From NCBI GenBank assembly GCA_037133055.1, contig JBAXOY010000002.1, positions 2,985 through 66,984 on the forward strand: a stretch of 64,000 nt of DNA, written 5' to 3'. The DNA is from Chlamydiota bacterium (GTDB lineage: Bacteria; Auribacterota; Tritonobacteria; UBA1439). Below are positions 1 through 64,000 of this stretch, one piece after another. The position numbers were made by a program, and so were the translations under genes. Each line of letters starts with the position of its first letter. Within the stretch, counting starts at the first letter, position 1. The notes beneath the pieces were generated by a model that did no database searches, had not been told where the DNA came from, and was given only the letters and a program-made list of their open reading frames with translations.

Positions 1-1
1 C

Positions 2-8141: not shown

Positions 8142-8195
8142 GCAACGCTCCTGCCTTCCAGCCGTACCGGGATTCGTGCAACGTCAACGACACGA

Positions 8196-8393: not shown

Positions 8394-8412
8394 CGCACTG
8401 CCTCCCTTTCCA

Positions 8413-35964: not shown

Positions 35965-36048
35965 ATGAAACCGGGCCGAAACGAGTTGTGTCTCTGCGGG
36001 GCGGGAAGCAAGAGTGACCATTGATTCGCAATAAAAAGGAGGGAATGT

Positions 36049-37542
<1,494 letters not shown>

Positions 37543-37690
37543 GTTGCGCCCGGGCATGATGGACGAAGATGATTTCCCCGGCGGACATCGGGTCCGCCGG
37601 GGAAATCCACGGTACAAACCAAAATGGAGCAACAGGGAAAGGCTTCAGCACAAAGAATCGGCATCAGAAAATGAAAAGGACCGGCGCTCC

Positions 37691-40736: not shown

Positions 40737-40799
40737 GACCATAGTGGAAGTAGTTATGCCCAAGGAACAAATTGAAGAGGCGCAGCGGATAGCACGGAA

Positions 40800-45639: not shown

Positions 45640-46977
45640 TCATTTATTCGTCTCATGTAAGGGGTGATTCACCATCGCGCGTGCGGTGCTTCGGGCCTGC
45701 GTGCGGGCCTGGGCCAGGGTTGCTGCAACAGCGGCAATCCACTTGTCGGGAAAACGGGCAGGATCCGTCATCCATGGCCGAAGGCTCTCGACCGCGCCTT
45801 CGCTCCCCTCCAACTCGTCGGCGACGGCGCAGATGAGCAAGGCCCCGGTCTGGGGAAACCGCGCGCTCCACTCCGGCCCCACGGCATGATCGAACCCGGC
45901 GGCGAACGCCTGGAGTTGGTCATCGGCCAGATGTGTGCGCCGCGTCTCGCCTAGTTCGGCGGCGGCCTGCGACAGTTTTTTGTATTCGGACTTTTTCTCG
46001 GGGATGGCGGCGGCCAGTTCCTCTGCCAGGATCTCCAACTGGACCTGCAACAGGAAGGTCGGCATGCCGCGGCCCGCGAGGATACGGCCCAGCCACCGCA
46101 CCTGCTGGATGATCTGCGCCGGCTCGTAGTGGTAGAGCGTGGCCAGCCAGGCGGAGTCGCTCCGGGCAAAGAGCCGCCCCCTCTCGCCATAACGGTGCTC
46201 AAAGTAGGGAAACCGCTGCCAGCAGACATCGGCGGCCCGGAGGGAGGCCTGGACCTCGCGGGCATCGGCCGGCACCGGATGCCGCCCCGCCTCTGGATTG
46301 ATGGAGGTGGCAAGGAAGGTCTTGGACTCCGGTTTGAACGGGTACAGCGCCCGGAAGATCGCCTCGATCTGGGCCAAAAACTCGTTGGCCGCCTGTGTCA
46401 TCTGGTCGCGATCCTCGACGCTGAGGCGAAGCGCGTTCATGCGCTGCTGATACTGCGCCCACCGGACATACACTGCGGCCACATCAGTGTGCAGATAGGC
46501 CGACCCTTCATCGCCCGCGAGCAGGAAAGCCCGGGCATAGAGCGGCTGCAACACAACGGCGCCGAGCGTGGATCCCTCCAAAACATACACACAGCCCAGA
46601 ATGGTCAGCGGCTGCTCCATAGACCTGAAACGGAGCCACTCGGCGGTTTTCAGCGCCGCCTCGGCCGCCTCCTTCAGGTCAGCCACGGCCCGCGGTTCGA
46701 AATACCGCAGGTCTTGCTGAAGCCGGGGGAGTTTGCGCATGTCCTGGTTCCAGACGGAGGCAATCTGCTCGTCAGGGCAGCGTTCGAGCGCCTGCTCCAT
46801 CTCCCCATGTATAACGGACAAGGCCCGCAGTTGTCCCACATAGGATTCCAGCGGCAATCGGCACGCGACGAGGGCATGGAAGAAAGGCGCGGTTTGCAGT
46901 CGGGCATGAACCGGAAAAGTCGCCGCCCTGAGTTCTTCCATCAGGGTTAGCTGCTGTCCGTAGAGTCCTGTCTTCAT
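45640..46977 (-). CDS. heme-oxygenase-like N-terminal domain fused to an about 220-aa C-terminal domain of unknown function
   Basis: The N-terminal 220 aa follow the bacterial HO/BphO pattern (LMEELRAATFPVHARLQTAPFF...YVGQLRALSVIHGEMEQALE...LPRLQQDLRYF...YVLEGSTLG). Its start overlaps the stop of the upstream histidine kinase by 4 nt. Confidence 0.6.
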   Translation of the reverse strand: MKTGLYGQQLTLMEELRAATFPVHARLQTAPFFHALVACRLPLESYVGQLRALSVIHGEMEQALERCPDEQIASVWNQDMRKLPRLQQDLRYFEPRAVADLKEAAEAALKTAEWLRFRSMEQPLTILGCVYVLEGSTLGAVVLQPLYARAFLLAGDEGSAYLHTDVAAVYVRWAQYQQRMNALRLSVEDRDQMTQAANEFLAQIEAIFRALYPFKPESKTFLATSINPEAGRHPVPADAREVQASLRAADVCWQRFPYFEHRYGERGRLFARSDSAWLATLYHYEPAQIIQQVRWLGRILAGRGMPTFLLQVQLEILAEELAAAIPEKKSEYKKLSQAAAELGETRRTHLADDQLQAFAAGFDHAVGPEWSARFPQTGALLICAVADELEGSEGAVESLRPWMTDPARFPDKWIAAVAATLAQARTQARSTARAMVNHPLHETNK

Positions 46978-48122
46978 GGATGTGTTGACTCCTCAGTCAG
47001 AGGTAGTTCCTGGACCGGCAAAGCGAAAAGAAAGGTCGAGCCCGCGCCGGGGATGCTCTCCACCCAAATGCGCCCGCCGTGCGCCTCGACGACCAGCCAC
47101 GCGATGGAGAGGCCGAGTCCCACGCTGCGTTCCCCGGCGGTCTTGCGGGTCCCGGCGCGCACGAAAGGCGCAAAGAGCCGCTCTTGGTCCTCGAACGCGA
47201 TGCCGGGCCCTTCGTCACGCACGGAGAAGACCAGTTCCGAGGCTTCCCGGCGAGCCGCCAGCCAGACGCGCTGGCCTGCGTTGGAGTGTTCAACGGCATT
47301 ACTCAACAGGTTGATTAAAACCTGCCGGACCTTGGCAACGTCCACGACCAGAGGGCGCGCATCGCCCTCCGCCTCCGCGAGCAATTCGACCTTCTTCCTG
47401 GCGGCGACCAGGCGGACCAGCGGCAGAACGCTCGACAGGATCTCCGCCATATCGGTTCGCGCCCGCTCCAGCCGCAGGTGTCCAGATTCGATTACGGACA
47501 CATCGAGAAAATTATCGATCAGCCGCTTCATGCCGGCGGCGGCGGCCAGAATGGCGCGAAGAAATCCCCGCTGCTCGTCGCCGAGGCAGCCGCCGGCCGC
47601 GTCAAGAACCAACTGGCTGTAGATCATGATGACCCCGACGGGATTGCGGAGGTCGTGCGCCGCCATGCCGATAAAGTGGTTCTTGAGCTCGTTCAGTTCG
47701 CGCAGCTCCGCGTTGGCCTGATGGAGCTGCCGGGTAAGGTTGTTCAACTCGCGGTTCAGCCCCAGCGCCTCGTCGCGCAGTTTCCGCTGTTCCTGGAAGT
47801 CGAGACTCCCGAGAGCGAGCGTCCCCTCGGGCAATGGGAAGAATCGGAAGCACAGGGTCTCGGGTATTCCGGAAACGGTGCTCAGCGTGAGCCGATGAAC
47901 CGCGCTGCCCTGCCGGATGAGCGAAGGGAGATTGAGCGAGCGGGTGAAATCCACGATCTGTTCAGCAAACGGGCGCCCGAAGGCCTCGCCGCGCAGCACC
48001 TGGCGCGCCAGGGCGTTGGCGCCCGCCACGCAATGGTCGGCGTCAAGGTAGAGCGCCAGGACGGGCGCGGTCTCCACCACATAGGTTCGCATAGCCTCGG
48101 CGATGCGGGGGTCGTCAAACAT
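46974..48122 (-). CDS. cytoplasmic sensor histidine kinase with an N-terminal PAS-like domain
   Basis: The H-box is NHFIGMAAHDLRNP, the N-box is NLLSNAVEHS, and the G-boxes are DEGPGIAFEDQERLFAPF and GLGLSIAWLVVEAHGGRIWVES. There are no TM helices. Confidence 0.8.
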   Translation of the reverse strand: MFDDPRIAEAMRTYVVETAPVLALYLDADHCVAGANALARQVLRGEAFGRPFAEQIVDFTRSLNLPSLIRQGSAVHRLTLSTVSGIPETLCFRFFPLPEGTLALGSLDFQEQRKLRDEALGLNRELNNLTRQLHQANAELRELNELKNHFIGMAAHDLRNPVGVIMIYSQLVLDAAGGCLGDEQRGFLRAILAAAAGMKRLIDNFLDVSVIESGHLRLERARTDMAEILSSVLPLVRLVAARKKVELLAEAEGDARPLVVDVAKVRQVLINLLSNAVEHSNAGQRVWLAARREASELVFSVRDEGPGIAFEDQERLFAPFVRAGTRKTAGERSVGLGLSIAWLVVEAHGGRIWVESIPGAGSTFLFALPVQELPLTEESTHP

Positions 48123-48786
48123 GGTTTCCGCCGCCCGTTATCCACGCCTCGAGTTCGCTCAGGGACGTCAGGCAACGCACCCCGGGCAGGCCTGCGACCC
48201 GCTCCCGTCCGCCCCGGCGGAACGCCTGCCCGCCGACGAGAATCGGCACGTCCGGGAAGGCCGCCCGGATTTCAGCGGCGGCGCTGATGAGCGTATCCAG
48301 ACCAAAGGCTACGGTCACCGAAAGCGCAACCACGTCCGGCCGCTTTTCCGCAATGAGCGCCTTCACGTCGCTCACGGTCGTGTTCGCGCCCAGGAAGTAA
48401 CCGCGCCAGCCGTGCAACTCGAAGAGATCGGCTACCATTTTTCCGCCGATCTGGTGATGCTCGTTGGCCACGCACGCGACGATCGCCGACTTTCCCACGT
48501 GCGGCTGCGCGAAGAGCCGGGGATAGGCAAGGTTTAGCAGGCTCTCGGTGATCGCAGTGGCCAAGTGCTCCGTGGCCACGGAAATCCGTCCCCGTTCCCA
48601 CAGATCGCCTATTTCGTAGAGCGAGCGCTGCACCAGCTCCTCATAGAGCGTGCGAAGCTCGACATTGGCCTCCAGCCATTGCTCGAAGCTCACACGGCAC
48701 TGGTGTCGGTCGTTGGCCAGCAGGCCGCCCAGATAACGCCGATAGTCATCCTCGGAGGAGAAAAGTTGGTCCGGCGACTGATTCAT
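48115..48786 (-). CDS. stand-alone cobalamin(B12)-binding domain protein (CarH/AerR-like sensor module without a DNA-binding domain)
   Basis: The most plausible start is the ATG at 48786 (MNQSPDQLF...). The B12-binding motif is ANEHHQIGGKMVADLFELHGW (ExHxxG...G) in a Rossmann-like region. It overlaps the histidine kinase start by 8 nt. Confidence 0.65.
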   Translation of the reverse strand: MNQSPDQLFSSEDDYRRYLGGLLANDRHQCRVSFEQWLEANVELRTLYEELVQRSLYEIGDLWERGRISVATEHLATAITESLLNLAYPRLFAQPHVGKSAIVACVANEHHQIGGKMVADLFELHGWRGYFLGANTTVSDVKALIAEKRPDVVALSVTVAFGLDTLISAAAEIRAAFPDVPILVGGQAFRRGGRERVAGLPGVRCLTSLSELEAWITGGGNHV

Positions 48787-49127
48787 TCGTGAGCCTTCGT
48801 CGAAGTCGCCGGGGCCGTCTCGCCCCCCGCGGGCCGGTGGCGGGGCGGTTCGCCAATCTTCCCGCGCAGATCGCTCACTTCGCGCTTCAGTTCGATCATG
48901 CGGAGGGTGCGATCGACGGCGACCCGGTTGAAGCGGCTCAGCTCGTCGTTGCGGGCACGGGGTTCTCCGGCCTGCTCCCGCAGCGCATCCTCCGCCTTCT
49001 TGCGCGAGGTGGTGTCGCTCGTCACGGCGCGGTACACGGGCGCGCCGTCGGCGTCCTGCGCCGCGATTGCCCCCACCCGCGCCCAGAATGACAGGGCGTC
49101 TTTTCGCGCCATCCCCATCTCCCACAC
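48783..49127 (-). CDS. possible remnant or N-terminal piece of a sensory protein (PAS-linker / coiled-coil-like segment)
   Basis: ...TSRKKAEDALREQ...ELSRFNRVAVDRTLRMIELKREVSDLR resembles inter-domain linkers of PAS sensor proteins. Its stop abuts the B12-binding protein start in another frame. Confidence 0.25.
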   Translation of the reverse strand: MWEMGMARKDALSFWARVGAIAAQDADGAPVYRAVTSDTTSRKKAEDALREQAGEPRARNDELSRFNRVAVDRTLRMIELKREVSDLRGKIGEPPRHRPAGGETAPATSTKAHE

Positions 49128-49420
49128 CCGCGGCGCGCCGTGTCGAGCTCCGCCACGAACATCGCCGCGATCTTTTCGATCGCCCCATTTCTCCTGCGCC
49201 TATTGTACTTCCTCATTCCCTCCCGTCCAGTGCAAAACACCCCGCAGGATGTACGACCCCGCATCAGCCCCGACTCGACCCGGGGATGATCGAGGCGCGG
49301 TTCAGCCTCGGGATCGTTCTCTTAATCTCGGCGACCGGGAAGGGGCGGCAGCCGGGTTCGATCGGATGCCCGCGGAGAGGCCCGATTTCGCGCCGGCTGC
49401 GGCGTGACGCGCACGAGTGA

Positions 49421-49844
49421 ATGCCTTCCGTTGAAATGATCCGCGACAAATATCTTTTCCATGCGGCCTCCCTGCGGCATCCTTTTCATGCAGCGGGGCG
49501 CCGATTTGGTGTACAATACGTGCCCGGCGCCCGTCCGGCACGCACACGTCCGGAGTGCGATCATCATGAACTCGTCCCCGAAGAAGTCCGCGCCCGATTC
49601 AACAAGCCCGCCGCGAAGGCGGAGATCTTTATCGAGGACACGGGCAGCGGGATCCCGGAGAAGGATCCGGGGAAAATCTTCAAGCCATTTTTCAAGAGTA
49701 AAAAGGGGGGAGACAGGCCTCGGCGCTTCCATCGTCCGGCGCATTGTGCTGGGGCGCCACGGGACCATACGCTGCGAAAGCGCACGGAATAAGGGGACCT
49801 GTTTCACCATCGCGTTGCCGCGTGCGAAATGGGGGAGGGCATGA
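49421..49844 (+). pseudogene. frameshifted 3' fragment of a histidine kinase (HATPase_c G1/G2 boxes split across two frames)
   Basis: One frame reads FIEDTGSGIPEKDPGKIFKPFFKSKKGG. The adjacent frame reads TGLGASIVRRIVLGRHGTIRCESARNKGTCFTIALP. No HisKA or sensor region is intact upstream. Confidence 0.45.
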
Positions 49845-51199
49845 AGAAGATCCTTATCGTGGACGACGAGGAATCGATACGGACGTCCCTGTCGATCCTT
49901 CTGAAGAAGGACGGCTATTCCGTGAGCGAGGCGGCTGACGCGAACGAGGCGCTGGGCATGCTTGACGCATCCTGCTACGACCTGGTCATCACGGATTTGA
50001 ACATGCCGGAGATGGGGGGGATCGATCTCCTGAGGCACGTGAAGAAGGAGCACCCGGACGCCGAGGTCATCATCCTCACCGCCTACGGCAGCATCCAGTC
50101 GGCGGTCGAGGCGATCAAGATCGGAGGGTGCGACTACCTGACGAAGCCGATCGAGTCCAAGGACATCCTCATACGGGTCGGGAACGCGCTCGAGCGCAGC
50201 TTCCTCAGGCAGGAGGTGCGCCGCCTGAAAGACGCGGTGGGAGACCGGTTCTCGTCCAAGCACATCATCGGCACGAGCCGGGCGATCGCCGCGCTGCTCG
50301 ACACCGTAGACCAGGTCGCGAAGACGGATTCCACGGCGCTCCTGATCGGGGAGAGCGGCACGGGCAAGGAGCTCGTGGCGCGTGCCCTGCACGGGGGGAG
50401 CAGCAGGAGGGAGCGGGCATTCATCCCCATCAACTGCGGGGCGCTGCCCGAAACGCTGCTCGAGAGCGAGCTGTTCGGCCACGCGAAGGGCGCGTTCACG
50501 GGTGCGATGCACTCGAAGAAAGGCCTGTTCGAAGAGGCGGACGGGGGTACGATATTCCTGGACGAGATCTCGGCGACGGCCCCCATGACACAGGTCAGGC
50601 TCCTCCGCGTGCTCCAGGAGCAGGAGGTCCGCCGGCTCGGGAGCAACGAAACGGTGAAGATCAATGTCCGCGTGATCGCCGCGACGAACCAGGACTTCGG
50701 CGCGCTGGTGCGGGCCGGGAAGATCCGCGAGGATCTCTACCACCGATTGAACGTCATCACCATCATGCTCCCCTCCCTGCGGGATCGGAGGGAGGACATC
50801 CCGCTTCTGATCGAGCATTTCGTCAAGGCGTACACAGGCGGCGACAGGGCGAGGGCCAGGAGTATGTCCGACGATGCGTTCGAAGCCCTGAGCCGGTACG
50901 ACTGGCCCGGCAACGTGCGGGAGCTGAAAAATGCCGTCGAGCGGGCCATGGTCATGTCGAAGACGTCGGTGATCGAGCTCGCCGATCTCCCCCAGGAGAT
51001 CCGATCCGTCGCCGGGAAGGCCGTTAGGGCGCGGGGCGGCGCGGGAGGGCTCAAGGACGTGGAACGGGATTATGTCCTGGAACGGCTCACACTCCACGAC
51101 TGGAACTACTCGAAGACCGCGCGGGACCTCCGCATCGCGAGGAACACCCTTCTCAAGAAGGTGAGAGAGTACAGGCTGAGCCGCCCCCCCGGGCGGTGA
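49841..51199 (+). CDS. NtrC-family sigma-54-dependent response regulator (REC + AAA+ + HTH)
   Basis: It starts at an ATG preceded by GGGGGAGGG. The REC domain shows KILIVDDE...DLVITDLNMP. The sigma-54 AAA+ domain shows GESGTGKELVARALH and GAFTGA. A C-terminal Fis-type HTH is present. Confidence 0.85.
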   Translation: MKKILIVDDEESIRTSLSILLKKDGYSVSEAADANEALGMLDASCYDLVITDLNMPEMGGIDLLRHVKKEHPDAEVIILTAYGSIQSAVEAIKIGGCDYLTKPIESKDILIRVGNALERSFLRQEVRRLKDAVGDRFSSKHIIGTSRAIAALLDTVDQVAKTDSTALLIGESGTGKELVARALHGGSSRRERAFIPINCGALPETLLESELFGHAKGAFTGAMHSKKGLFEEADGGTIFLDEISATAPMTQVRLLRVLQEQEVRRLGSNETVKINVRVIAATNQDFGALVRAGKIREDLYHRLNVITIMLPSLRDRREDIPLLIEHFVKAYTGGDRARARSMSDDAFEALSRYDWPGNVRELKNAVERAMVMSKTSVIELADLPQEIRSVAGKAVRARGGAGGLKDVERDYVLERLTLHDWNYSKTARDLRIARNTLLKKVREYRLSRPPGR

Positions 51200-51897
51200 T
51201 CCGGGAGAGCGGCTCGTCGCTCCGGCCTTTCAAAAACTGCACACCGCGTAGTATCTCCACAGCTCCCGCCCCCCTCGTTCCCATCCCGGCTCCCTCCTCG
51301 ACACGTTCGCGCTGATTCGCATCCCCTTGTCGTGGGGTAGGCTGAATGGCATCCGCAGAAAAAAGCCGGACGATCCGATGCGTGACGTGGAAGTTGCAGT
51401 CTCTTTTGAGAGCGGGGACGCGTGTCTCCGCATCTCATGCAATTTTGCGCAGGCCCGGAAGCGCCGATCCCGGAGGGGTATGTCATGATCGTATCCGACG
51501 GGAAGACGGTTCTACACGAGCGGCCGGCCGATGCAGCTCATTACGAAAACATTATGCGGTGGCGCGGACCGCACTGCGGGCGAAAGGCTCCAGTGGCGAA
51601 CCTTGGGGCATGCCTCGCAGCGCGGTGTCCGCCCCGTCAATCCGTCCGTGCAGGTTGCTCAATAATTGAACACCTGTCATTTTCTGAATAGCCATCCGCG
51701 CTCAGAGAAACGTCCGTGGAACTGTATCCAGGAGTTCAGCAATCTAACCTACTGGTATTACGCATACTAGGAATAGCGACGGATTTTTCTCAATTGCCCA
51801 TCGACGGCATGAATTATGCTTCGCTTGTACGCGGGGGACTGGGTACCCGGCGTAAGGTTTTGTTTTGAAATCTCGAACGGTCGGACAAGGGGGGAGC

Positions 51898-52959
51898 ATG
51901 AAACGGCAGATTTCCATTGCGGCATCTGCATTCATCGGTCTGTGCGCGGCGGTATGGGCCGCTCCGCAAGCGGCAAAGGATTCGCTGCCACCGTCGGCGG
52001 CGAAGACGCATCTTTCCGCGCTTGAAGGCGCGTGCCGGAGAGGGGATGAACGGGGGATAGTGCAGAGCATCGGTGATCTCAGAGCGGAGTGGGGTAACGT
52101 CCCCGATTACGGGGCGATCGGGGAGGCGGTGCTCTCGCGCGACGCGGATCCGAAATACCGCTGGGTCATGCTCGACTCGCTTGTGCAGTACAAGCGCATC
52201 GTGAAGGACAGCCGCGACGCCCGCGCTCTCCTCACGCTTCTCGACGTCGTGTCGTGGGCGGAGAACGATACGTCGTTCGTGCGCGCCAAGGCGCTTACCG
52301 TGGAAGCGGGGATGATCGCCCTATTCGAGGAGAAGGGGCTCATCCGGGAAGCCCGGCGGCGCGAGTTCGGGAAAAAACTCGCCGCGCTCATCGAGAAGGA
52401 GAAGGACGGCGACCTGCTTGCCGCGGCCTGCATCGCCGCGGGGAGTGCGGATGCCGGGGAGGCCGTTCCCGCGCTGCGGAAGCATGTGCGGAACGAGAAT
52501 GCCCCGTCCCTTGTGCGGCGCACGGCGGCGGGCTCGCTCGGGAAGTTGAAAGACAGGGAGAGCATCCCCCTCATCGCGGAGGTCATGAAAAACACGACCG
52601 ACCGCGCGCTTTACGGCTCAAGTGCCTTTGCTCTGGGGACCATGGGGGGCGAGGAGGTCGTGGAGCCGCTCGTGGCGCACGCGGGGCGCTTCGACACGCA
52701 CTCCTGCGGAAACGCCCTCCGGAGAAATTCGGCGACGGTCGCGCGCATGTTGACGGACACCCAATCCCCCCGCCTGGAGAACGCGATCAGGGCGGCGGGC
52801 CTTGCGGAAATGAAGGAAACCCTCCCGCAGCTCGAGGCGCTGGAGAAGGACGGGCGTCCGGAGGTGCGGCGCGCGGCGAAGGAGGCCCGGGAACGAATCA
52901 GCCGGAAACCGGGGGGGGCGACCCCCGGCGCGGATGCCCGCAGGGAGGTGAAGCCATGA
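51898..52959 (+). CDS. secreted HEAT/PBS-lyase-like repeat protein
   Basis: It has a signal peptide after [21 protein letters not shown]. It contains repeated helical units with conserved R..AA..LG. Its stop (TGA) overlaps the ATG of the giant downstream gene (ATGA). Confidence 0.6.
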
Positions 52960-55900
52960 AGAGACCGGCAATCCTCCTGATTCTCGCGGCAATGGGAACA
53001 GCGGCTCCCCCTGTGTCCGGTCAAATCATCGGGAGCCAGGAGCGCGGAGACGCCGTCTACCACAACCTCACCGGGCTCTACAGCATCGCGGGCTACGACC
53101 ATGCGGCGATCTATTACGGGTACACGAGTGGCGACCGCACCGACATGGGCAACCACCGCGTCATCGAGGTTGGGGGCCTTTTCGACGTGGTGAGCGAGAA
53201 CTCATTCGGCGATTTCACCACCGGGGAGGACCTGTACTACTACGGCGCCCACACCAATCCATCGATCACGGCCGCCCAGCGCGCAGCGATCATCGCCACC
53301 GCCGAGGATTTTCGCGACAACTCGAACCTCACGTACACGGTCTTCGGGCAGATTGACTGGAAAGGGCTCGACTGGGACGGCACGATCGGCGACCTCGAGA
53401 ACATCCGGTGCGACGGTTTGGTGGAATGCTGCTACGAGATGAACGGGGTAAACGTGTGGGGCAAGGAGGGGACGCACTTCTCGATCGTGAACTACCCCGA
53501 CGAGCACAACGACATGCCCGACTTTTGGAATCACGACACCTCGGACGGCATGATGGAGGACCCGCGCTGGGAGGTCTCGCCGAAGGCACAGCGGGGCGGG
53601 CTGGGTGAGGAGTACACGCAGTTCCGCATTTCGATCGCCTATAATCCTGTCGTCCACCCCTCGCTGTCGGGGGATACCGGATGGGAGGGCTGGTACCGGG
53701 GCGACGTGGAGGTCTCCCTCACCGCGACGGACGACTCGGGCATTCACCAGGAAAACGGGATCGACTACATCCAGTACGGACCTTCCGCGTCGGGGCCGTG
53801 GACGACGTACACGGAGCCTTTTACCGTGACATCCTCCACACGCATCTACGGATACTCCGTGGACAAGGCCGGGAATGGCCCCTCGCACGGGAGCGAGGTG
53901 GTATACGTCAAGATTGACAGGGACGCCCCGCCCGTCACGAGCCCCGCGCCGTCCCCCGCGGGGCCGACGTGCAGCACGATGCCGACGGTTTCGGGCTACA
54001 CGGTGAACGACAACGGCCCGAGCGGGATACACCACTACGAGTACAAGATCGACGGAGACGAGACCGTCCGCACGGCGACGTGGACGAGCTTCCAGACGCC
54101 GACGCTGGGGGAGGGGACCCACACCGTGTACGTGCGCGCGGTGGACAAGGCAGGCAGCGAGGGCCCGTGGGGGAGCTGCCAGGTCGTGGTGGACTTCAAC
54201 ACAATCCCCTGTCCCACCCCCACGCCCGGAAACCCCGAGAATGATCCGGGAGAGCTGTATAACGCCCAGGTGGCCGGCAGTGTGCCTTTCACCTCGACGG
54301 GGTCGTGGACGAGCGGCTGCGTGGACGGGAACTATCTCTATCTTGCCGCAGGGGGCCTGTCGATCTTCGATCTCGGCGACCCCGCCAACCCAAGCCTTGT
54401 CGGCTCGTATCCGGGCGACTGGGACGGGGAGTTCGGCATCATCGTTCGCGACTGGAAGGCGTACACGATCAGCTACCATGGCCTGAAGATCTTCGACGTC
54501 TCCAACCCCGCCCAGCCGGTTCTCCTGGGGAGCAGCGCGACGGGGGGTTACTTCCCGGGCTACCCGTACGAGAAGAAGATGTGTGTCTCCGGCGACTACG
54601 CCTACGCCTATGCCACGCTCTGGAATATCTCCAACCCCCAGAGCCCCTCCTACGTGTATGACCTGAGGGGCGCTCCGGCGTATGTGAGCGGGGGCTACGA
54701 GTGGTGGTTCTACAACACCATGCTCGGCGTCAAGAACGTCTTCCTGGCTCCGCCCCCCGCCGACACTGACATCATCCGCGTCAGGCCGTACCCGATTCGG
54801 TCTGAGGACGCCTCCTACGCCTACGACATGCATGTGCAGCCGCCCTATGTGTATCTCGTGGACAACCGCTTCGGGCTTACGATCTATGACATGAACTTCA
54901 ACCAGCAGGGGACCTATCTCCAGTTCACGCCGTGGAGCAGCCCGACCTACAGCAACAGCCATCTCTGTGTCTCTGGGAACCGGGCATACATCGGTTCGGC
55001 TGCCAGACCCCCCGGAACCGGGGAGGACGTCACGTTCCTCCAGGTCATCGATGTTTCAAACCCGGCAGCCACCCGGCTCGCCGGTCAGATCGGGATCCAG
55101 GGGATCACAGGCGGGTTGGGCAATTTGCAGGATATCGTCGCGAGGGACGGCTACGTCTACATGCTTTTCAACGGCCGGATACTGGTAATCCGCGACGAAG
55201 CCGCGGCCCCGGCCTCCGTGGTCGGATTCGATTTCCCGGTGGCGGACCGCGACCAGGACCCGGTCGAGGGGGTGGTTCGGGACACGCGTTACTTCGCCCG
55301 GTTCCTGCCCGGCGCCTACAGTTACGGCGGAAACTCCTACCTCGGGTTCGGCATTCTTCCCGACGGCGACTTCCTCGCGCCGAATTACAGCAGCACGATC
55401 GAGCACCCGGGCGAGGACTGGAACGGCTCGGGTGGCGGCTCTACTGACCAGGGACAGCCGGCGCGCGCGATCGGCGACGGGGTGGTGAGGGTGAGCGCGG
55501 ACTTCGGCGGCGCGTGGGGAAACGTCATCCTCGTGGAGCACAGCGCGCCCGGGGGTTTTTCGTTCAAGGTCGCCGACCGGAACGGCGAGACCGGGAACAC
55601 GGTCTCGAAGGTCTGGTCTCTCTACGGGCACCTGAATAATCGCGCGGTGAGCGCGGGGGACACGGTCACGCGCAGCCAGGAGCTGGGCGGGATCGGGAAC
55701 GCCGACGGCTATTACGGCAACGGGTACCACCTCCACCTCGAGGTGAGGTACGCCACCTGGGTGGCGAAGGCGATGAGTGAGTGGACGCAGAGCGACTGGA
55801 ACGCGTGGGCGGTGAGCTGGGGCGGGAAGGCGGGGAGCGCGACGACGGTCGAGCAGTACTGGTGCGACCCGACAAACTTCATTCTGGCCAACCGGTCGGT

Positions 55901-58900
55901 CGCGGGCGGCAGCACGGGAGACGGGCCGTCGCCGAAGCGGTTCTCCGCGACGAAGCAGTTCGGATACTACAACTGGACGATGAACGTGAGGCTTCTCGAC
56001 ACGGCCGGCGTGGCCGGATTCAAGTTCTACATGTCGGACGACACGAAGCCCGACCCGACCGACCCTGATAATTTCCCGTCGTCGTGGGCGTACAAGGGGA
56101 CCGCGGCGGCGGGCAGCGCGGTGCAGATCGGCGCGGACGAGTTCCAGGCCGGCACCCGCTACTACTTCACGGTGACGGCCTACGACACCCTGTACCGTAT
56201 GAGCGATCCGTATTACCCGACGGTGCAGTACGTGGCGACAAGCGAGTGGGACGGCGATTCGGACGGACTCGAGGACAGTTGGGAGATGCTCTACTGGGGG
56301 AACCTCGACCAGGGGGCGAACGACGACCCGGACGGGGACGGGCTCACGAACGCGGAGGAGTATGCGCTCGGGACCTATCCCACGAATCCTGATTCCGACG
56401 GGGACGGCGTGAGCGACGGGGACGAGGCGGACGGGGGCTTCGACCCGCTCGACCCGGCCAGCCATCCGTTCCCGGGGGCGGCGGTCTACACGAGCGCGGC
56501 GAACACCGCCGGGCCGTGGGACGGGACGCAGGCGCACCCGTTCAGGACGATCGGCGACGCGGTCCGCGCGTCGGGCGCCGACTACACGGTCAGCGTCGCG
56601 GCGGGGACCTACAGCGAGAACCTTACCCTGAAAGAGGGGATGCAGCTCATCGGGGCCGGCGCGAACCAGACGACGATCGACGGCCCGGACGAGGAATATG
56701 TCTACACCGCCGTGATGGCGCCCTCGAACGCCACGGTCAGCGGCTTCACGATCAATGCGCCGAACGACGGGGACGGGATCGACATCTATGACGCGAATGA
56801 CCCGTACGGAGTCCCCACCACCGGCGTGACGGTGAAAAATAACGTCATCGTCGGGGGATACGGGATCTACGCGACGAACCTGCACTCCTCGACGATCGCC
56901 AACAACACGTTCGTCACGACGTGGTCGGGGATCGGCCTTTCGATGTCGGACACGGTGACCGTGAAGAACAACGTGATCGCCGTGTCGGACCAGGAGTACG
57001 GGGAGGGGATATCGTTTGATCAGGTGGCGGACCCCGCCGACATCGCGATCTCGTACAACGATGTCGTGGCGCTGACGCCCTACATGGACTACGGCACGAG
57101 CGGGGCGTTCACGCCGCTCCCGGGAACGGGGGAGATGAGCGAGGACCCGGTGCTGATGCCGGGGGCGGGATACCGGCTGGACGCCGCCTCGCCGAGCATC
57201 GACGCCGGGGACCCGGCGGACAACTATGCCTTGGAGCCGGACTATCCGGCGGGCGCGATCAACATGGGCGCCTACGGCGGCACGGCGCAGGCGGAGACGC
57301 CCGCGGAAGGGAACCAGCCGCCCGCGGCGGCGATCGCCGACCCGGGGACCGTCGGCTCGAACACCGTGACGCTGGACGGGAGCGGGTCGAGCGACCCGGA
57401 CGGGAGCATCATCGCGTACGACTGGTACGTGGGCGGGGACTACGCCGGGAGCGGGAGCCCTCTCCAGGTGAACGTGCCGGCGGCAAAGGTGAAGGCGGGC
57501 CACGGCAGTGTGCAGGCGGAGCTCTCCGTCCTGGACAACAACTATGCCTCGGGGACGACGAGCCGCACCCTGCAGTTCACAGACACCGACAGGGACGGGC
57601 TGGCGAACGACGACGACCCGGACGACGACAACGACGGAATGCCGGACGTGTGGGAGAACGCCTACGGGCTGAACCCGCTTGTGGCGGACGGCAATGCCGA
57701 CCCTGATCACGACGGGCTGACGAACCTCCAGGAGTACCAGGCGGGGACCGATCCGATGGATCCGAACGATCCGCCCCCGCTGGAGCCGAGCCCCACCCCG
57801 ACAGCGGGTTCCGCGACCGCAACGCCCACCGAAACACCGGAGCCGATGCTGACATCGACTCCCACGGAGACGCCGGCGCCGACGATGTCTCCTACATCGA
57901 CACCTACCGGAACGCCGACACCGGAGCCGACGGCGACCGAAACCGAGACGCCGACTGAGACCCCCACCGAGACCCCGACGCCGGGGCCCGAGGTGACGGA
58001 CACGCCGGAGCCGACGCTGACGCCGACCGAGACCCCGACGGAGGCTCCGACTGCAACACCCACGCCATCGGTTGTACAGACGGACCGTTATTATGTAAAC
58101 GGCGACGTCGCCCAGTCCGGCAACGGCTCGAGCTGGGGGGAGGCGCTCAAGACGATCCAGGAGGCGGTGGACGCCGCCGCGTGGACGACCGATCCGGTCG
58201 ATATCTGGGTGAAGCAGGGGACCTACGCCCTCTCGTCGGAGATCACATTCAATAATGTCAGGGTGTTGATCTACGGCGGTTTTGTCGGAAACGAGACGGA
58301 GAGGAGCCAGCGCGACTGGCAGAACAACCCGACGGTCGTGGACGGGCAGGACACGGTTCGATGCTTCCATCTTGGCGACAGTGAGGTTGAGATCAACGGC
58401 GTTACCATCACCCGGGGCGCGGCGTATCGCGGCGCGGGGATTTATAGGGAGGCCGGAGACTTCGGCACGATCCTCGGCACGATCCTCAACTGCACCCTTT
58501 CGTACAATGTTGCGGAGGATGCGGGCGGCGCGATCTACGCCGCCGGAGGGAATCTGAACGTCATGGACTGCACCCTTTCCCAGAATACTGGGGACAGAGG
58601 AGGGGCGATCTGTCCCGAAGGGGGAGTGGTTGCGACCGTCTCCCGGTGCGTCTTTGAGAGCAACGTCGCGGCGAGTTTCGGAGGAGCCCTCTACGGGGGT
58701 TTCAGCAGCGTTTCGGAATGCCGCTTCGCCGGGAACACGGCGCTCTACGACGGCGGCGGCGCGCATCTCTTCCTCGGCAGCGTGGCAGACTGCGTCTTCG
58801 AGGGGAATGCGGCGAGCTCCGGGAGCGGCGGCGGCGCGTTCTGCACCGGCGCGACGCTTGATCGCTGCACCTTCACCTCCAACACCGCCAGTGTCTCCGG

Positions 58901-61900
58901 GGGAGGACTGCGCCTTGTAAGTGACCCGGGGTACACGACTGCGGGGGTGACCAACTGCGTGTTCGCATCGAACTCTTCGGCGACCGGCGGCGGCGTCTCC
59001 ACGGAGGGGAATGCAAACGGCAACTCGATGCTCGTGCACTGCACGCTCTGGGGGAACGGCGCGGCGGTGTCGGGGGGAGGGGTCTATAGCGAGGTGAATC
59101 CACCGACGGTGGTGAACTGTGTGCTGTGGAACGACTCGTCGTCCTCGGGCGCGGAGATCGGCTACGGCGAGGGCGCCGCGCCGTACGTGTCGTACTCCGA
59201 CGTGAATCAGGACGGTTATGCGGGGGAGAACGGGAACATCCGGCTGGATCCATATTTCGCGGGGGCGCTGGGCGGGGAATTCCATCTTCGCGGCTACAGC
59301 CCGTGCATCGGGGCGGGTGAGGGCTTTGGAATTACGGTGGACAGGGATATGAATCCGCGGCCTGCCCCCGAGGGATCGAGCCCCGACATGGGCGCGTACG
59401 AGAGCCCGCTGGGTGTCCCCGAGGTATACCCCTACACCGTGATGAATCTGGGGACTCTCGGAGGCAACGGTAGTCAGGCCTGGAGCATCAATTCCTCCGG
59501 GGTAGTCGTCGGTGGAGCGGGGACATCCGGCGGAGACCATGCGTTCAAGTACGAGAATGGAATTATGACGGATCTCGGAACCATCGGAGGCAGCGTAAGT
59601 TGGGCCTTCGGCATCAATTCCTCCGGGGTGATCGTCGGCGCAGCAAATATACCCAGCGACTCCTTGAGCCATGCATTCAAGTATGAGAATGGAGTGATGA
59701 CTGACCTCGGCACCCTCGGCGGCTCCTACAGTTGTGCCTGGGGCATCGATTCGTCGGGGGTGATCGTCGGCGATGCATTTACATCCGGCGAAGAGCAGCA
59801 TGCATTCAAGTACGAAAACGGGAACATGACGGATCTTGGAACCCTCGGCGGCAGCTATAGTCAGGCCTTTGGCATCAATTTCTCCAGGGTGATCGTCGGT
59901 GGAGCGAGGACATCCGGCGGAGATGACCATGCGTTCAAGTACGAGAACGGGATCATGACGGATCTCGGGACCCTCGGCGGCTCCTACAGTTGTGCCTATG
60001 GCATCAATTTCTCCGGGGTGATCGTCGGTACATCAACTACATCCGGCGGAGATTACCATGCATTCAAATACGAGAACGGAGTCATGACGGATCTCGGGAC
60101 TCTCGGCGGCAGCGTGAGTGTCGCCCGGAGCATCAATTCCTCCGGGGTGATCGTCGGTTATTCGTCTCCATCCAACGCGGACAACCATGCATTCAAGTAC
60201 GAGAACGGCGTCATGACGGATATTAATCCATCCGGCGCGTGGAATTCGGATGCGATCGCCATTAACGACAACGGGTGGATCGTGGGCTATGACGATGAAG
60301 GGGCGATGCTGCTCATCCCGCTCGGAGAAGAACCCACGCCGGAGCCGACACTGACGCCTACCGAAATGCCGACGGTGACGCCGACACCCGCCGCAGAGCC
60401 CTGGTACACGACATACGGTCCCGGCGGACAGGATCAGGTGGTGCGGATCGGTAACCTGTATGTTGCAAAGTGGACGGACAATCCGGGCACCGATACGAAC
60501 GCAGCAAAGGACTGGTCATCCGCCTGCTCCTGGGGCGCCGATTTGGTCTGGCTGGGCAAGGATGACTGGAGAGTGCCGACGAAGGATGAATTGACCGCGA
60601 TATGCGGAAGCAGGGGGAGCCTCGGGTCGTATCAGGAGGGCTGGTACTGGTCGTCCACCGAAATCAACGCTAATGATGCCTGGTGCGACTACCTGCCCGA
60701 ATGTTACATGGGGAACCGGCCGAGGGGGCAGGAAAACTATGTGCGCGCGGTGCGCGATGCCGGGGAGGACGCAACCCCGACACCGATGCCGGAGGTGACG
60801 GAGACGCCGACATCGGAGCCGACCGAAACCCCGACGCCGACGGAGACTCCCGAGGTGACGGAAACACCGACCCCGACGCCGACGGAGACTCCCGCGGGGA
60901 ACACCGCGACGGTGTACAGCATGATGGACGGGGTATGCTACTCGGGTGGCAGCTCCGACTGGGCGACGGAGCACGACGCGACTTACCACAACGCGCGGAC
61001 CAACGACGGGAACTATAACCTGCACGCGTCGTGGAACGGGAATTCATACTACATCAACCGCCATTTCATCCATTTCGACATCTCTGGCGCGGTGCCGGCG
61101 GGATCGACAGTGACGGGTGCGAAGCTGAAGCTGTATTTGGACCATGTGTCGACATCGTCGGGTCACTCGCTGGCGGTGGTGAGGAGCTATGCGGCGAGCA
61201 ACACCACCATCGAAGGCAACGACTACGACAACTGCGGCGACGCGGTGACCAACCCGACGGAGGGCGCGGTGCGGAGGGCTTACAGCGCCTTGAGCGAGGG
61301 GTGGAACGAGATTACGCTGAATGCGAGCGCGGTAATGTGGGCAAACGAGGCCGTGGCCGGAGACGGGTGGGTGAAGCTCGGCTTGAGAGAGGGCGAACAC
61401 GACTGCTCCAATGTCGCCCCGGCGGCGTGGGAGGAGATCCGTGTGTGGTTCAGCGAGAGCGGGAACACGCCGGCGCTGGAACTCACGTACGAGGATGGGG
61501 CTGAAACTCCTACGCCCACGGAAACGCCGGTGCCCGAGCCGACGATGACTCCTACACCGGAGCCGACATTGACACCGACCGAAGTGCCGACGGAGACGCC
61601 GACGCAGATGTCTCCTACGTCGACACCTTCGGCTACGCCTGCGGCACCTACGGCTACGCCTCCGGCTCCCACGCCGACACAGACGGCGGCCCCGGCGAAG
61701 ATGCCACTCGTGGCGGGGGAGGTGTCGGGGATGAGGGTGGCGGCGCCGAGGGCCCCCGGCGAGGACGGGTTCGTCTACTTCATGGGGTGCGCGGACGACC
61801 CGCTGGCGCACACGATGGGGTCGGTCTCCGACGGCGACAACACGTTCGTAGGCGGGAACAGTTATACGCCCCAGCCGATAGGGATACGGATCGTGAGATC

Positions 61901-62210
61901 GACGGCGGCGCGGATCACGGTGCAGGCGGGGGATCAGTTGGTCATCACGAACGCAGAAGGGGAGAAGATGAAGGTGCACCTGCCGCCGCTCGACACGACG
62001 GAGGACGTGGCTCTCTACGTGGGATCGGACGGGGCGACGTACTACGACAGCGGGCTCGCCGGCGTGGCGCAACCCGCCCCGACCGTCACGGCGATCAGAG
62101 TGAACTTCCAGCCCGGCGCGTCGGCGATCCCCGCCGGGTTCTACCGCGCTCCGGATACGACGAAGGGGACGCACTGGGGAGACTCGGGGGTGCGGGAGTA
62201 CGGCTGGTAG
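52956..62210 (+). CDS. giant (3084 aa) secreted multidomain surface protein: Ig-like repeats, LVIVD-like propeller repeats, an M23 peptidase domain, TSP3-type Ca-binding repeats, a PKD domain, beta-helix / PMP-like repeats, eight HAF-family repeats, a DUF1566-like domain, and PT-rich linkers; it ends in VNFQP...EYGW
   Basis: A GGGAGGTG ribosome-binding site precedes the ATG at 52956, and there is a signal peptide ([22 protein letters not shown]). The M23 domain shows GNVILVEH...YGHLNN...GYHLHLEV. The TSP3 repeats include [12 protein letters not shown] and [12 protein letters not shown]. The HAF repeats read [28 protein letters not shown], eight times. The DUF1566-like domain shows [15 protein letters not shown]. 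The tail is [36 protein letters not shown] followed by a stop. Confidence 0.8.
57775..58075 (+). repeat. low-complexity PT/ET-rich linker-coding repeats (TPTETPT units) inside the giant gene
   Basis: Repeated acnccgacn / gagacn units are read from the sequence. Similar linkers occur at about 18517-18600, 60340-60395, 60775-60900 and 61505-61690. Confidence 0.7.
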
Positions 62211-62465
62211 CGTCACCTGCAGACGTAATAGATTGTTCATTGGTTTTGCCCGGGTGAAGGCGGTGGAGCCGGCCGGTGTACCGGACCAGAGTCGACTGTG
62301 GTCCGCGCGGGGCTGTTTCGGCACCATTTAATGTGAGGCAATTCGCTGGGCGATTATCACTTGAAAATAGCTTCATAAATAGTGTATAAGAATAACCACT
62401 CCGGTGTCGGCGTTCCCTTGCGCGAAGGACTCGGTGGCACGCGACCCTGGAGTGCGGTCGCCGAA

Positions 62466-63653
62466 ATGAAAAAAGAGATTCTGATCGTCGCCCTCGTTGC
62501 AAGCGCCCTCGGCGCCGGAATTATCCTGTGGCAGATGGGAAAAACCGGCGCCGTTTCCTCCGTGGCGAACGCGCGCGCTCCGGGCCGGGCGTCGGAAAAC
62601 GAACCGCTCCCGCGGGGCAGAAGTTTGGTGCCCGGCAATCGGGCACAGGAGCCGCCGCCTCGGGTTTCCCCGGAGGGGGCTCGCGCGCGGGGAGACCAGC
62701 CCGCCGTCCAGGGTCACCCGACGCCGTCCCCCGCGCTCGCGCCGCCGACGGAAGAGGTTCGCGAAGCCGCGGACATTCCCTCGCCGCCGGGCATTCCCCT
62801 GGCGGAGGCCGCCCTTTCCCCCTCGGGAGAGAAGCTTCTCTTCGGCAGTGCGAGCGGCCGCGGATTGGCCATCCATGATATGGCGTCCAATTCGGAGTTG
62901 ACCGTAAGCTCGGCCCCCGGCTCGGGGTACGGAGCGTCATGGTCGCCCCGGGGCGACCGGGTCGCGTACAAGGAGGTGGACACCGCGTCGGGAGAGGAGA
63001 ACGCGGTGGTGTACGACACGGGGACGGGCACGGCGACGGCATTGAATAAGGAGGGCCGGCAGTGCGGCACGCCGGTCTTCTCGCAAAGCGGCTCGGTTGG
63101 ATTCGCCGCCGGCGATGCGATATATCTCTATGATGAAAATCTCGATTTCAGGAAGAAGATAGCGGTCGATGAAAACGTGCGACAGATGGCGTTCTCGCCG
63201 GACGGGGAGCGCGTGGGGATAGTGACCGTCCGCGGCCTCTTTCTCGTGGATACGGGCGACGGCGGCAAAAAGGAGATCGCGCGCACGAGCGCGGAATACC
63301 TGCAGCCTCATTTTTCGCCCGACGGAAAGAGGATAGCCCTTGGAACCTCGTCCGCCGACCTACATATCGCCGACGTCGCATCGGGGGATATCTGGAACGC
63401 GGGACGCGGAGAATGCCCTCAATGGTTTTCGGACGGCGCCCGTGTGATCTTCCTCAGAAACAGGCGGCTGTTGATAGACGGGGTCAATCAATCGGAGATT
63501 GTCATCGCCGATGCCGCGAAGAGAACGAAGAGGGCCATATTCGAAACGAAAGAGGAGATTCTGTCCGGCCTGTCAGTCTCCTCAGATGAAAAGAAGGCAA
63601 GCTGCATTTCTTCGGACGGGAAAACGGTGAAGATATTCAGCCTCGCCCGGTGA
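62466..63653 (+). CDS. TolB-like (PD40/WD40-like) beta-propeller protein with an N-terminal membrane anchor and a Pro-rich linker
   Basis: The ATG at 62466 is followed by MKKEILIVALVASALGAGIIL, a TM anchor. Repeated about 40-aa units carry S/D-x-G (SWSPRGDRVAY, AFSPDGERVGI, HFSPDGKRIAL), typical of PD40 propellers. Confidence 0.6.
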   Translation: MKKEILIVALVASALGAGIILWQMGKTGAVSSVANARAPGRASENEPLPRGRSLVPGNRAQEPPPRVSPEGARARGDQPAVQGHPTPSPALAPPTEEVREAADIPSPPGIPLAEAALSPSGEKLLFGSASGRGLAIHDMASNSELTVSSAPGSGYGASWSPRGDRVAYKEVDTASGEENAVVYDTGTGTATALNKEGRQCGTPVFSQSGSVGFAAGDAIYLYDENLDFRKKIAVDENVRQMAFSPDGERVGIVTVRGLFLVDTGDGGKKEIARTSAEYLQPHFSPDGKRIALGTSSADLHIADVASGDIWNAGRGECPQWFSDGARVIFLRNRRLLIDGVNQSEIVIADAAKRTKRAIFETKEEILSGLSVSSDEKKASCISSDGKTVKIFSLAR

Positions 63654-63678
63654 GTCGCACGAAAACGGGGGCGGACGG

Positions 63679-64000
63679 ATGAAAAGAACAGCCGGCATTC
63701 CGGCCGCGCTGGCGGCGGTTGCTTTTTCCGGGGGAGTTGCCCGGGCGGTGCAGCTCAGCAACGTGCCCTATGTCCACCAGGTATATGATACCCCCTCGGC
63801 CTTTGACGGAAGCTGGGCATGCAACGCGACCTCCGCGCTCATGGCGATCCAGTATTACGGCAGACTCCCCGTCCATCAGATATCGCTTCCCGCCTTCAAC
63901 GGCGTCCCGGCGCACACGAGCGACTATGGCTTCTACGTCTCCGAGCAGTACACCTACAACGGCGTCACGTACAGCGTCACGTTCAACGACGCAAGCGGCA
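63679..64000 (+). CDS. secreted peptidase C39-like domain protein; the 3' end lies outside the window
   Basis: It has a signal peptide (MKRTAGIPAALAAVAFSGGVARA). VPYVHQVYDTPSAFDGSWACNATSALMAIQYYG matches the C39-like / papain-like pattern with the catalytic Cys embedded in GSWAC. Confidence 0.45.
   Translation, partial: MKRTAGIPAALAAVAFSGGVARAVQLSNVPYVHQVYDTPSAFDGSWACNATSALMAIQYYGRLPVHQISLPAFNGVPAHTSDYGFYVSEQYTYNGVTYSVTFNDASG

Follow-up and report, generated by a model that had tools for sequence, protein, structure and literature searches.

The 64,000-nucleotide (nt) stretch of DNA described here (the window) belongs to an uncultured metagenome-assembled genome (MAG) that carries the NCBI label 'Chlamydiota bacterium'. 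Towards its 3' end, a gene at 52956..62210 encodes a giant mosaic protein of 3084 amino acids (aa) with a Sec signal peptide at aa 1–22; the listed open reading frame (ORF), 52254..62210, includes the ATG at 52956 that is used as the start of this translation. The giant gene is preceded by a gene for an exported HEAT-repeat protein of 353 aa with a signal peptide (51898..52959; HEAT_2, 3.1e-17) and followed by genes for a membrane-anchored, 'TolB-like' PD40-type beta-propeller of 395 aa (62466..63653) and for a secreted C39-like papain-fold peptidase (63679..>64000), which runs off the window. These genes, their regulatory features and the tagged genes described below all lie on the plus strand. 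A first-pass annotation, made from the sequence alone, took the HEAT, TolB-like and C39-like genes for a dedicated export or processing neighbourhood of a giant adhesin or toxin-like protein. The comparisons presented here point instead to a conserved pair of a HEAT protein and a putative cysteine hydrolase domain, to which the rest of the giant protein, with a truncated C-terminal tag, has been added, and to a split peptidase encoded next to it.

The N-terminal region of the giant protein (aa 28–225, 53037..53630) is a catalytic domain that the first-pass annotation had overlooked and for which there is no Pfam model. In an alignment of eight sequences, His49, Cys152 and His184 are invariant, with a histidine preceding the cysteine, and HN and QRGG form an additional invariant signature. 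Cys152 lies at the start of a predicted helix, which begins at residue 153 in the model. A fold search with the predicted domain gave YaeF/YiiX-like and LRAT/PLAAT-like permuted NlpC/P60 proteins (PDB 2if6, 3kw0 and 7zot) as the best structural matches. TseH, a type VI secretion system (T6SS) effector, was among the fold similarities, and the weaker structural neighbours included the NlpI–MepS and IseA–LytE complexes (8xud, 8i2e). On alignment and fold prediction, the domain is a putative circularly permuted NlpC/P60 (YiiX/LRAT-like) cysteine hydrolase. Pfam gives no match for it at E<=10, the NLPC_P60, LRAT and Peptidase_C92 models included, and nothing usable was obtained from NCBIfam or from a profile search of the PDB; one of the eight homologues matches NLPC_P60 at E=0.021. 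Because no sequence model of the superfamily matches the domain, it points to a new sequence family within the NlpC/P60 superfamily. This family is small and not visibly polymorphic (20 matches). The S1 pockets of permuted NlpC/P60 enzymes are hydrophobic and their substrates of lipid type (PMC3142127), and the substrate of the present hydrolase would be an acyl or amide linkage in an envelope lipid or in peptidoglycan.

The ATG of the giant gene overlaps the TGA of the HEAT gene as ATGA. This coupling, which the first-pass annotation had read from the window, is conserved: in six of the seven testable loci the hydrolase-domain gene directly follows a HEAT gene, with a 4-nt overlap in four. 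The overlap reads TTGA in locus L007 (78% identity) and is also 4 nt long in L091 (71% identity, with a HEAT protein 57% identical) and in L089 (35% identity, the protein possibly cut by the contig end), and the two genes are separated by 35 nt in L087 (36% identity) and by 24 nt in L086 (28% identity). The L007 assembly has a coverage of only 3.6x, and both its HEAT gene (near 9430) and its giant gene (near 11341) are frameshifted in it. The proteins of L086, L087 and L089 are not giants; they are 520–700 aa long and consist of the hydrolase domain and Ig-like domains. The HEAT orthologues have signal-type N-termini, align colinearly, score above the HEAT_2 cut-off and share the motifs T-T/S-D...G-S/T-x-A-F/Y-x-L-G and S-C-x-x-A-L. 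Because the HEAT gene adjoins the hydrolase-domain gene even in these non-giant relatives of 28–36% identity, the unit kept over a long evolutionary distance appears to be a HEAT protein followed by a permuted NlpC/P60 domain with Ig-like domains. Judged from this gene order, the HEAT partner goes with the N-terminal hydrolase domain, not with the size of the protein. No described precedent for a HEAT protein paired with such a hydrolase was found in the literature.

Beyond this unit, the giant protein changes fast. The L007 orthologue is colinear with aa 1–1642 and then picks up at the HAF repeats; the tblastn alignment with this relative, 66–77% identical, jumps from aa 1642 to aa 2158. About 515 aa of the window protein (aa 1643–2157) are therefore missing in L007, which is without the long proline/threonine-rich (PT) linker, the second beta-helix and the choice-of-anchor Q block. 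This difference suggests that the giant part is a fast-changing, variable accretion on the conserved unit.

The remaining domains of the giant protein were judged against the curated Pfam and NCBIfam cut-offs. Two OmpL47-type/Big Ig-like barrels (aa 247–430, 53694..54245; NCBIfam NF047446, 2e-14, in two stretches) are above the cut-off at aa 247–330. An LVIVD-type beta-propeller region, whose extent is estimated from the sequence (aa 440–790, 54273..55325), is anchored by a match at aa 456–485 (LVIVD, 6.7e-10, 38.6 versus 20.2). The M23 (LytM-type) metallopeptidase (aa ~813–933, 55392..55754) is confirmed: Peptidase_M23 (PF01551) matches aa 830–933 at 2.1e-10 (41.1 versus 28.7 bits), and both zinc-ligand motifs, read from the translation, are intact, with HxxxD present as HPGED at about aa 813 and HxH as HLH at aa 925. 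It is followed by TSP3-type calcium-binding repeats, a first beta-helix, a PKD-like domain and a second TSP3-like block (aa 1100–1605, 56253..57770). The first beta-helix (aa 1187–1359) matches DUF1565 (7.5e-11) and NosD (5.6e-07), TSP3_bac is borderline (1.8e-05, 24.9 against a cut-off of 25), and PKD (aa 1453–1498) stays below threshold (21 versus 27). The long PT linker and a second beta-helix with Chlam_PMP repeats and a choice-of-anchor Q motif occupy aa 1606–2150 (57771..59405); Chlam_PMP (around aa 1898) is above its cut-off (30.2 versus 20.6) and choice_anch_Q is at it (24.7 versus 25). HAF repeats at aa 2160–2450 (59433..60305) are above the cut-off (TIGR02913, 2.5e-67, 222.5 bits versus 22.65, six stretches), and the motif count is six full motifs with partial units at the flanks, not the eight repeats counted earlier. 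Lcl_C (DUF1566; aa 2506–2600, 39.3 versus 34.9), a PT linker and a CBM96-like module follow within aa 2506–2760 (60471..61235). The domain list of the first-pass annotation thus stands for the OmpL47-type Ig, LVIVD, M23, DUF1565/NosD, Chlam_PMP, HAF and Lcl_C regions, is borderline for TSP3, and falls below the cut-offs for PKD and for the DNRLRE-like module, which is visible only as CBM96 (E=1.2e-4, 22.4 versus 26). With PT-rich linkers at aa 1606–1711, 2451–2488, 2602–2656 and 2838–2914, the protein joins about a dozen binding or spacer modules to two catalytic ones, the N-terminal hydrolase and M23. Its Pfam and NCBIfam matches include no PEP-CTERM, type IX secretion system (T9SS) C-terminal domain, LPXTG motif or autotransporter barrel, and its last 45 aa contain no hydrophobic stretch. 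It is a real, Sec-exported mosaic extracellular protein.

Since the source is a MAG, the protein contains many repeats and PT linkers, and the exact 3084-aa sequence is absent from the protein collection, the giant ORF might be an assembly chimera of repeats or of misjoined genes. Four observations speak against this. The translation is free of stop codons over 9.25 kilobases (kb). An independent ENA assembly (L001) matches 57433..64000 at 99.8% identity without gaps and a Logan assembly (L002) matches at 100%; over the 3' 4.8 kb of the giant gene the two agree with it at 99.8–100% without gaps. At the DNA level the HAF repeats are only about 77% identical to one another (129-nt period, 76% matches), which makes a collapse of repeats unlikely. 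The colinearity of L007 over aa 1–1642 and its resumption at the HAF repeats point the same way. Taken together, these results make an artefact very improbable, and the giant ORF is accepted as real and intact, as had been proposed; neither an internal stop nor a repeat chimera, the outcomes that would have spoken against it, was seen.

The C-terminal end of the giant protein consists of a beta-sandwich module without an assigned family (aa 2919–3030, 61710..62045) and a tag, IRVNFQP...YGW (aa 3047–3084, 62094..62207). A profile built from five tail sequences was searched against 1.84 billion representatives at E<=0.001 and gave 241 matches, nearly all of them internal and many in multiple copies. 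As read from these matches, INFQP...P-x-GY-x-x-D-x-G...YGW opens a sandwich of about 150 aa that continues with N-x-D...RYDT...VPNG-x-Y and that bears a weak relation to the beta-agarase/YxiM galactose-binding-like domain (PF21254). The tag corresponds to the first ~33 positions of this domain. A hidden Markov model (HMM) of the full domain, built from 200 instances, matches four proteins of the window, each only over positions 1 to 33 or 37 and each at the C-terminus. Besides the giant, these are an S8 subtilase/FG-GAP/LTD protein identified with Pfam (15072..19286; RINYQP...YYGWR plus 14 aa after a PT linker; tag HMM, 4.1e-08), a secreted MBL-fold hydrolase (21124..22329; NCBI MEI6632298.1), which ends in RVNFQP...SYGWR (1.4e-13), and a secreted protein without a Pfam match, by eye a candidate for a glycoside-hydrolase-like barrel (41869..42921), which ends in RINFQA...RFGWR (3.3e-09). 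All four have signal-like N-termini and otherwise unrelated bodies. A plain search for window ORFs that end in GW or GWR behind an NFQP-like motif also returned several. The gene at 41869..42921 lies directly downstream of genes for a CsgG/LpoB-like lipoprotein and an HHH_3 (ComEA-like) protein (39999..41711).

Copies of the tag found only at the C-terminus also occur elsewhere in metagenomes (P0002, P0003, P0106, P0165, P0186 and a protein in locus L092) and end at GW or GWR. The remainder of the galactose-binding-like domain was not found in a six-frame translation of the window, in L001, L003 or L007, in the TolB-like or C39-like proteins or in 78 C39-like loci. Readthrough or a frameshift past YGW was considered and rejected, as in-frame stops follow and the domain does not continue. 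In an AlphaFold2 prediction, the module before the tag is a beta-sandwich with a predicted local distance difference test (pLDDT) score of 75–85, and the tag is disordered and unpacked; the module has no significant structural neighbour. Because the four C-terminal copies of the window all stop at position 33–37 and the rest of the domain is not encoded in the sequences searched, the tag is a portable, precisely truncated first beta-hairpin of a galactose-binding-like sandwich, about 35 aa long, carried by secreted proteins. Nothing specific on comparable C-terminal tags was found in the literature.

The TolB-like gene starts 256 nt past the stop codon of the giant gene and therefore does not follow it immediately, as had been stated; the interval contains no significant terminator or structured RNA (z=-0.6). 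The protein is not a true TolB of the Tol-Pal system: TIGR02800 scores 47.5 against a cut-off of 343 bits, the flanking genes are the giant and C39-like genes instead of Tol-Pal genes, and, by reading, an N-terminal transmembrane anchor and a low-complexity linker of about 90 aa take the place of the N-terminal domain of TolB. DPPIV_N and Tricorn match it weakly, and a scan of the GTDB species representatives found no close relative, only generic propellers at 25–29% identity. The C39-like peptidase passes Peptidase_C39_2 (PF13529) only on the 238-aa extension available in L001, where its sequence continues beyond the window (E=2.7e-13, 51.2 versus 24 bits). Its cysteine and histidine motifs are WACNATS and AGHY. 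The C39 peptidase of ABC exporters (PF03412) gives no match; the protein carries a signal peptide of its own, and its L092 counterpart extends into a PT linker and repeat domains.

A scan of metagenomes with the C39-like protein returned 78 loci at 29–68% identity. In 43 of the 66 loci where this could be tested, the peptidase is immediately preceded by a TolB-like propeller, and where a propeller is detectable it forms one ORF of 650–2000 aa with the peptidase in 45 of 47 cases (loci L008–L085, for example L008 8684..11092 and L017 5088..8513). The next most common neighbour family appears in nine loci, and no other neighbour is conserved. Since the two proteins are fused in almost all relatives and have no other conserved neighbour, the TolB-like and C39-like proteins probably make up one functional unit, a propeller-gated papain-fold peptidase that has been split in this lineage, and not an exporter. 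By eye, some of the fusions carry extra repeat domains and T9SS-type C-terminal ends. A literature search gave nothing specific on them. In the 78 loci, neither the HEAT protein nor 12 segments of the giant have a tblastn match at 1e-5, and neither the tag nor its parent domain is found nearby. The co-occurrence of the neighbouring genes with giant proteins, which the first-pass annotation had named as a check, holds for the HEAT gene, in company with the hydrolase domain, and fails in these 78 loci for the TolB-like and C39-like genes, although the two closest split-type relatives of the pair do follow large secreted proteins.

In the loci of these two divergent relatives, L092 and L093, the TolB-like proteins are 45% and 48% identical to that of the window and the C39-like proteins 67% in both. 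The pair is packed 39 and 34 nt, respectively, behind a large secreted protein, and the C39-like gene overlaps the TolB-like gene by 4 nt or trails it by 14 nt. The L092 protein (2..1372) has a Glyco_hydro_65C-like body, followed by the same PT linker, beta-module and tag as in the giant, a region 52% identical to the last 170 aa of the giant. The L093 protein (1..1161) is a beta-helix/Chlam_PMP protein that is 29% identical to the giant around aa 1850–2165 and has no tag at its end. In L003, a module and tag 73% identical to those of the giant are followed by a DUF gene, MazG, MraZ and RsmH. The module and tag are thus repeatedly, but not always, linked to the split peptidase.

Upstream of the HEAT gene lies a gene for an NtrC-type sigma-54 activator with a receiver, an AAA+ and a Fis-type helix-turn-helix (HTH) domain (49829..51199; Sigma54_activat 2.7e-67, Response_reg 8.7e-31, HTH_8). 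The distance is 698 nt, close to the 700 nt first reported, and the arrangement is syntenic in L007, where the NtrC-type gene comes after one for a PAS/HisKA kinase. Of this kinase, the window retains only a frameshifted 3' remnant (49589..49829), with tblastn matches to aa 541–622 of the L007 kinase in two frames, so that the regulator looks orphaned in this genome. A scan with the sigma-54 consensus TGGCAC-N5-TTGCW, with GG and GC held invariant, gave a candidate -24/-12 promoter, CGGCATGAATTATGCT (51805..51820), 78 nt upstream of the HEAT ATG. It keeps GG and GC and agrees with the consensus at 9 of 12 positions; the window has 22 such sites in all, and this one is no more than a candidate. 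L007 has an element with one mismatch, TGGAACGCCACTTGCT, between the NtrC and HEAT genes (0.08 expected). Sigma-54 control of HEAT and giant transcription is plausible. Beside the NtrC-type gene, a divergent operon (45640..49188, minus strand) encodes a heme-oxygenase-domain protein, a HisKA/HATPase kinase and a B12-binding-domain protein, and may be a light- or cobalamin-sensing module.

Other parts of the window encode proteins of different kinds. A second giant ORF (23077..32283, 3068 aa) has GT2, glucoamylase-like and GH94 domains; on inspection it is an unrelated protein of the GH94 cyclic beta-1,2-glucan synthase type. Two sulfatases, two radical-SAM/SPASM enzymes and a 5'-nucleotidase-like phosphoesterase are encoded at 34735..39604, 43126..45579 and 19607..20782 (minus strand). 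Radical-SAM/SPASM enzymes of this kind mature anaerobic sulfatases. We take such a gene content to be typical of free-living polysaccharide degraders of the PVC (Planctomycetes, Verrucomicrobia and Chlamydiae) group, which fits oddly with the 'Chlamydiota' label.

On balance, we lean towards an explanation of the locus as a whole in which a secreted mosaic protein with a HEAT–hydrolase core carries a truncated tag, stands beside a split peptidase and is under sigma-54 drive. The HEAT protein would be made in step with the hydrolase and bind it in the periplasm; it would most likely be an inhibitor or a chaperone that holds the hydrolase inactive against the envelope of the producing cell until release. 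The tag, itself without a fold, would most likely dock to a partner and thereby hold or sort secreted enzymes at the cell surface. Transcription would probably be driven by the adjacent NtrC-type activator through sigma-54, and in this clade the split propeller-gated cysteine peptidase may act on tag-bearing proteins, which we regard as possible though far from probable. Several observations weigh against parts of this explanation. The model of the N-terminal domain is of low confidence (mean pLDDT 53), being built from only eight sequences, and the domain is without a sequence-level match in Pfam or the PDB. Upstream of the L088 homologue, the 640 bp available contain no HEAT gene, and in L090 the hydrolase domain forms the C-terminal part of a different protein and no HEAT gene was seen. 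The HEAT protein could equally well be an activator or an adaptor. The window yielded neither a partner nor a receptor for the tag. As to regulation, the cognate kinase of the NtrC-type regulator is degraded in the window, the sigma-54 motif there is no better than chance (71 three-mismatch matches against 89 expected), and in L007 an insertion-sequence-like ORF of 200 aa with HTH and zinc-finger-like regions (8094..8696) lies between TGGAACGCCACTTGCT and the HEAT gene.

The proposal that the HEAT, TolB-like and C39-like genes export or process the giant protein draws on the conserved HEAT coupling and on the 34–39 nt spacing between a large secreted protein and the TolB-like/C39-like pair in L092 and L093. 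However, none of the neighbours is a transport component, the TolB-like protein falls far short of TolB, and the peptidase is not of the ABC-transporter type. Moreover, propeller and peptidase are a self-contained fusion in nearly all relatives, HEAT or giant-like neighbours are absent from all 78 loci, L003, the closest relative of the C-terminal module, has unrelated genes downstream, HEAT partners accompany non-giant homologues of 590–700 aa as well, and the giant and TolB-like genes are 256 nt apart. The export neighbourhood as first proposed is not upheld, and this reading is unlikely. A more limited relationship is conceivable, in which the tag serves as a signal for C-terminal sorting and is processed by the split peptidase, encoded beside the target gene. 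Sortases, exosortases and PorU show such adjacency of a sorting enzyme and its target. Within 64 kb, the tag terminates four secreted proteins whose bodies are unrelated, it is without an independent fold, and the giant of the window and the GH65C-like protein of L092, which differ in their bodies, share the beta-module and tag and are both followed by the TolB-like and C39-like genes. The giant also carries a choice-of-anchor-type motif, which, by its family name, marks proteins with varied C-terminal anchors. Against this, the tag is without the build of motif, transmembrane helix and basic tail of known sortase-type signals, the L093 pair follows an untagged protein, the tagged protein of L003 is without the pair, the fused relatives in the 78 loci have neither the tag nor a related domain nearby, and there are only two adjacent cases, which may share ancestry. 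Sorting by the split peptidase is accordingly a doubtful reading. The broader notion that the tag is a new kind of C-terminal sorting or docking signal, which either complements an incomplete domain on a surface receptor or is recognised and processed by the split peptidase whose genes directly follow a tagged gene in two divergent genomes, is likewise offered only tentatively.

The hydrolase itself could also be an antibacterial weapon. The giant would then be a secreted bacteriolytic toxin combining a permuted NlpC/P60 phospholipase or amidase with M23, and the HEAT protein would be its periplasmic immunity protein, with no contact-dependent delivery. The fold resembles that of TseH and of lipid-targeting permuted NlpC/P60 enzymes, among them Tox-Act1, a T6SS effector and phospholipase beside whose gene an immunity gene lies (PMC12994826). 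The gene of a small exported partner is strictly adjacent, and one protein contains two lytic-type domains. In the giant, however, the catalytic domain is N-terminal and the partner gene lies upstream. Polymorphic toxins carry the toxin domain at the C-terminus and have the immunity gene downstream. Neither the giant nor the scanned window ORFs carry markers of T6SS, of the type VII secretion system, of contact-dependent inhibition or of Rhs proteins, so that, among the features expected of an effector–immunity system, the locus shows the conserved adjacent partner and lacks a C-terminal toxin, a downstream immunity gene and a delivery marker. The hydrolase-domain family is not visibly polymorphic at its small size, and HEAT-repeat immunity proteins are not an established class; nothing specific on them, and none for such pairs, was found in the literature. 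A weapon is therefore improbable, and the secreted mosaic with a hydrolase core probably controlled by the HEAT protein, a truncated tag and a split peptidase is preferred.

Environmental bacteria commonly have giant mosaic surface proteins, and taken alone the present one is ordinary. The interest of the locus lies in three elements that are outside the curated libraries, namely the hydrolase–HEAT pair, the truncated tag and the propeller–peptidase family. A domain of the permuted NlpC/P60 type and an exported HEAT protein, usually translationally coupled, make a testable enzyme–regulator or toxin–immunity pair, and the domain is predicted to combine the fold of YiiX/LRAT/TseH-type enzymes with a sequence outside any described family. 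The truncated-domain tag is the one sub-feature that could prove new; should it turn out to serve in sorting or docking, the known C-terminal sorting signals would gain a class with a different mechanism. The split form of the peptidase beside tagged genes is a first functional lead for a widespread propeller/C39-like family without a known role. The locus also teaches that domain lists for giant ORFs can conceal the sole module that holds the conserved biology.

Among known systems, the giant resembles the HAF/choice-of-anchor mosaic surface proteins in its HAF repeats, beta-helix/PMP region, choice-of-anchor Q motif, PT linkers and short C-terminal tag. It belongs to this familiar class, yet it is without every known anchor signal: unlike PEP-CTERM, T9SS and LPXTG mosaics, it ends in a tag that has no transmembrane helix and is cut from a sandwich of the carbohydrate-binding type. 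Positions 1–33 of PF21254 and of its INFQP...YGWN relatives align with this tag. Elsewhere the ~150-aa domain is mostly complete, internal and often repeated, whereas the tag is its first hairpin only. The first-pass concept also recalls LapA and LapG, a giant surface protein with a cysteine peptidase nearby. However, LapA, which has no Sec signal, is a substrate of the type I secretion system (T1SS) and LapG is a peptidase of another family, whereas the giant has a signal peptide and no repeats-in-toxin (RTX) or T1SS features. The propeller–peptidase fusions are similar to DPP-IV, prolyl oligopeptidase and tricorn in joining a PD40-type propeller and a peptidase in one polypeptide. They differ in that the catalytic domain is papain-fold C39-like instead of a serine peptidase of family S9, and in this clade the halves are separate genes, one product membrane-anchored and the other secreted.

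The N-terminal domain shares with YaeF/YiiX and LRAT/PLAAT permuted NlpC/P60 proteins the order of histidine before cysteine and the cysteine at the start of a helix, and these proteins are its best structural matches. It differs from them in having no sequence-level match, in its extra HN and QRGG signature, and in its setting: it lies at the N-terminus of a Sec-exported protein, ahead of Ig-like domains, and has an upstream HEAT-repeat protein as its partner. Like Tox-Act1 and TseH, the hydrolase has an adjacent partner gene, which in those two effectors is an immunity gene (PMC12994826). In NlpI–MepS and IseA–LytE, a separate envelope protein controls a hydrolase of the NlpC/P60 fold, as the HEAT protein may do in the present locus. 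NlpI is a tetratricopeptide-repeat lipoprotein and IseA is not a repeat protein, and neither is translationally coupled to its hydrolase, in contrast to the HEAT protein. By analogy, NlpI–MepS, IseA–LytE and the effector–immunity pairs come closest to the HEAT pairing.

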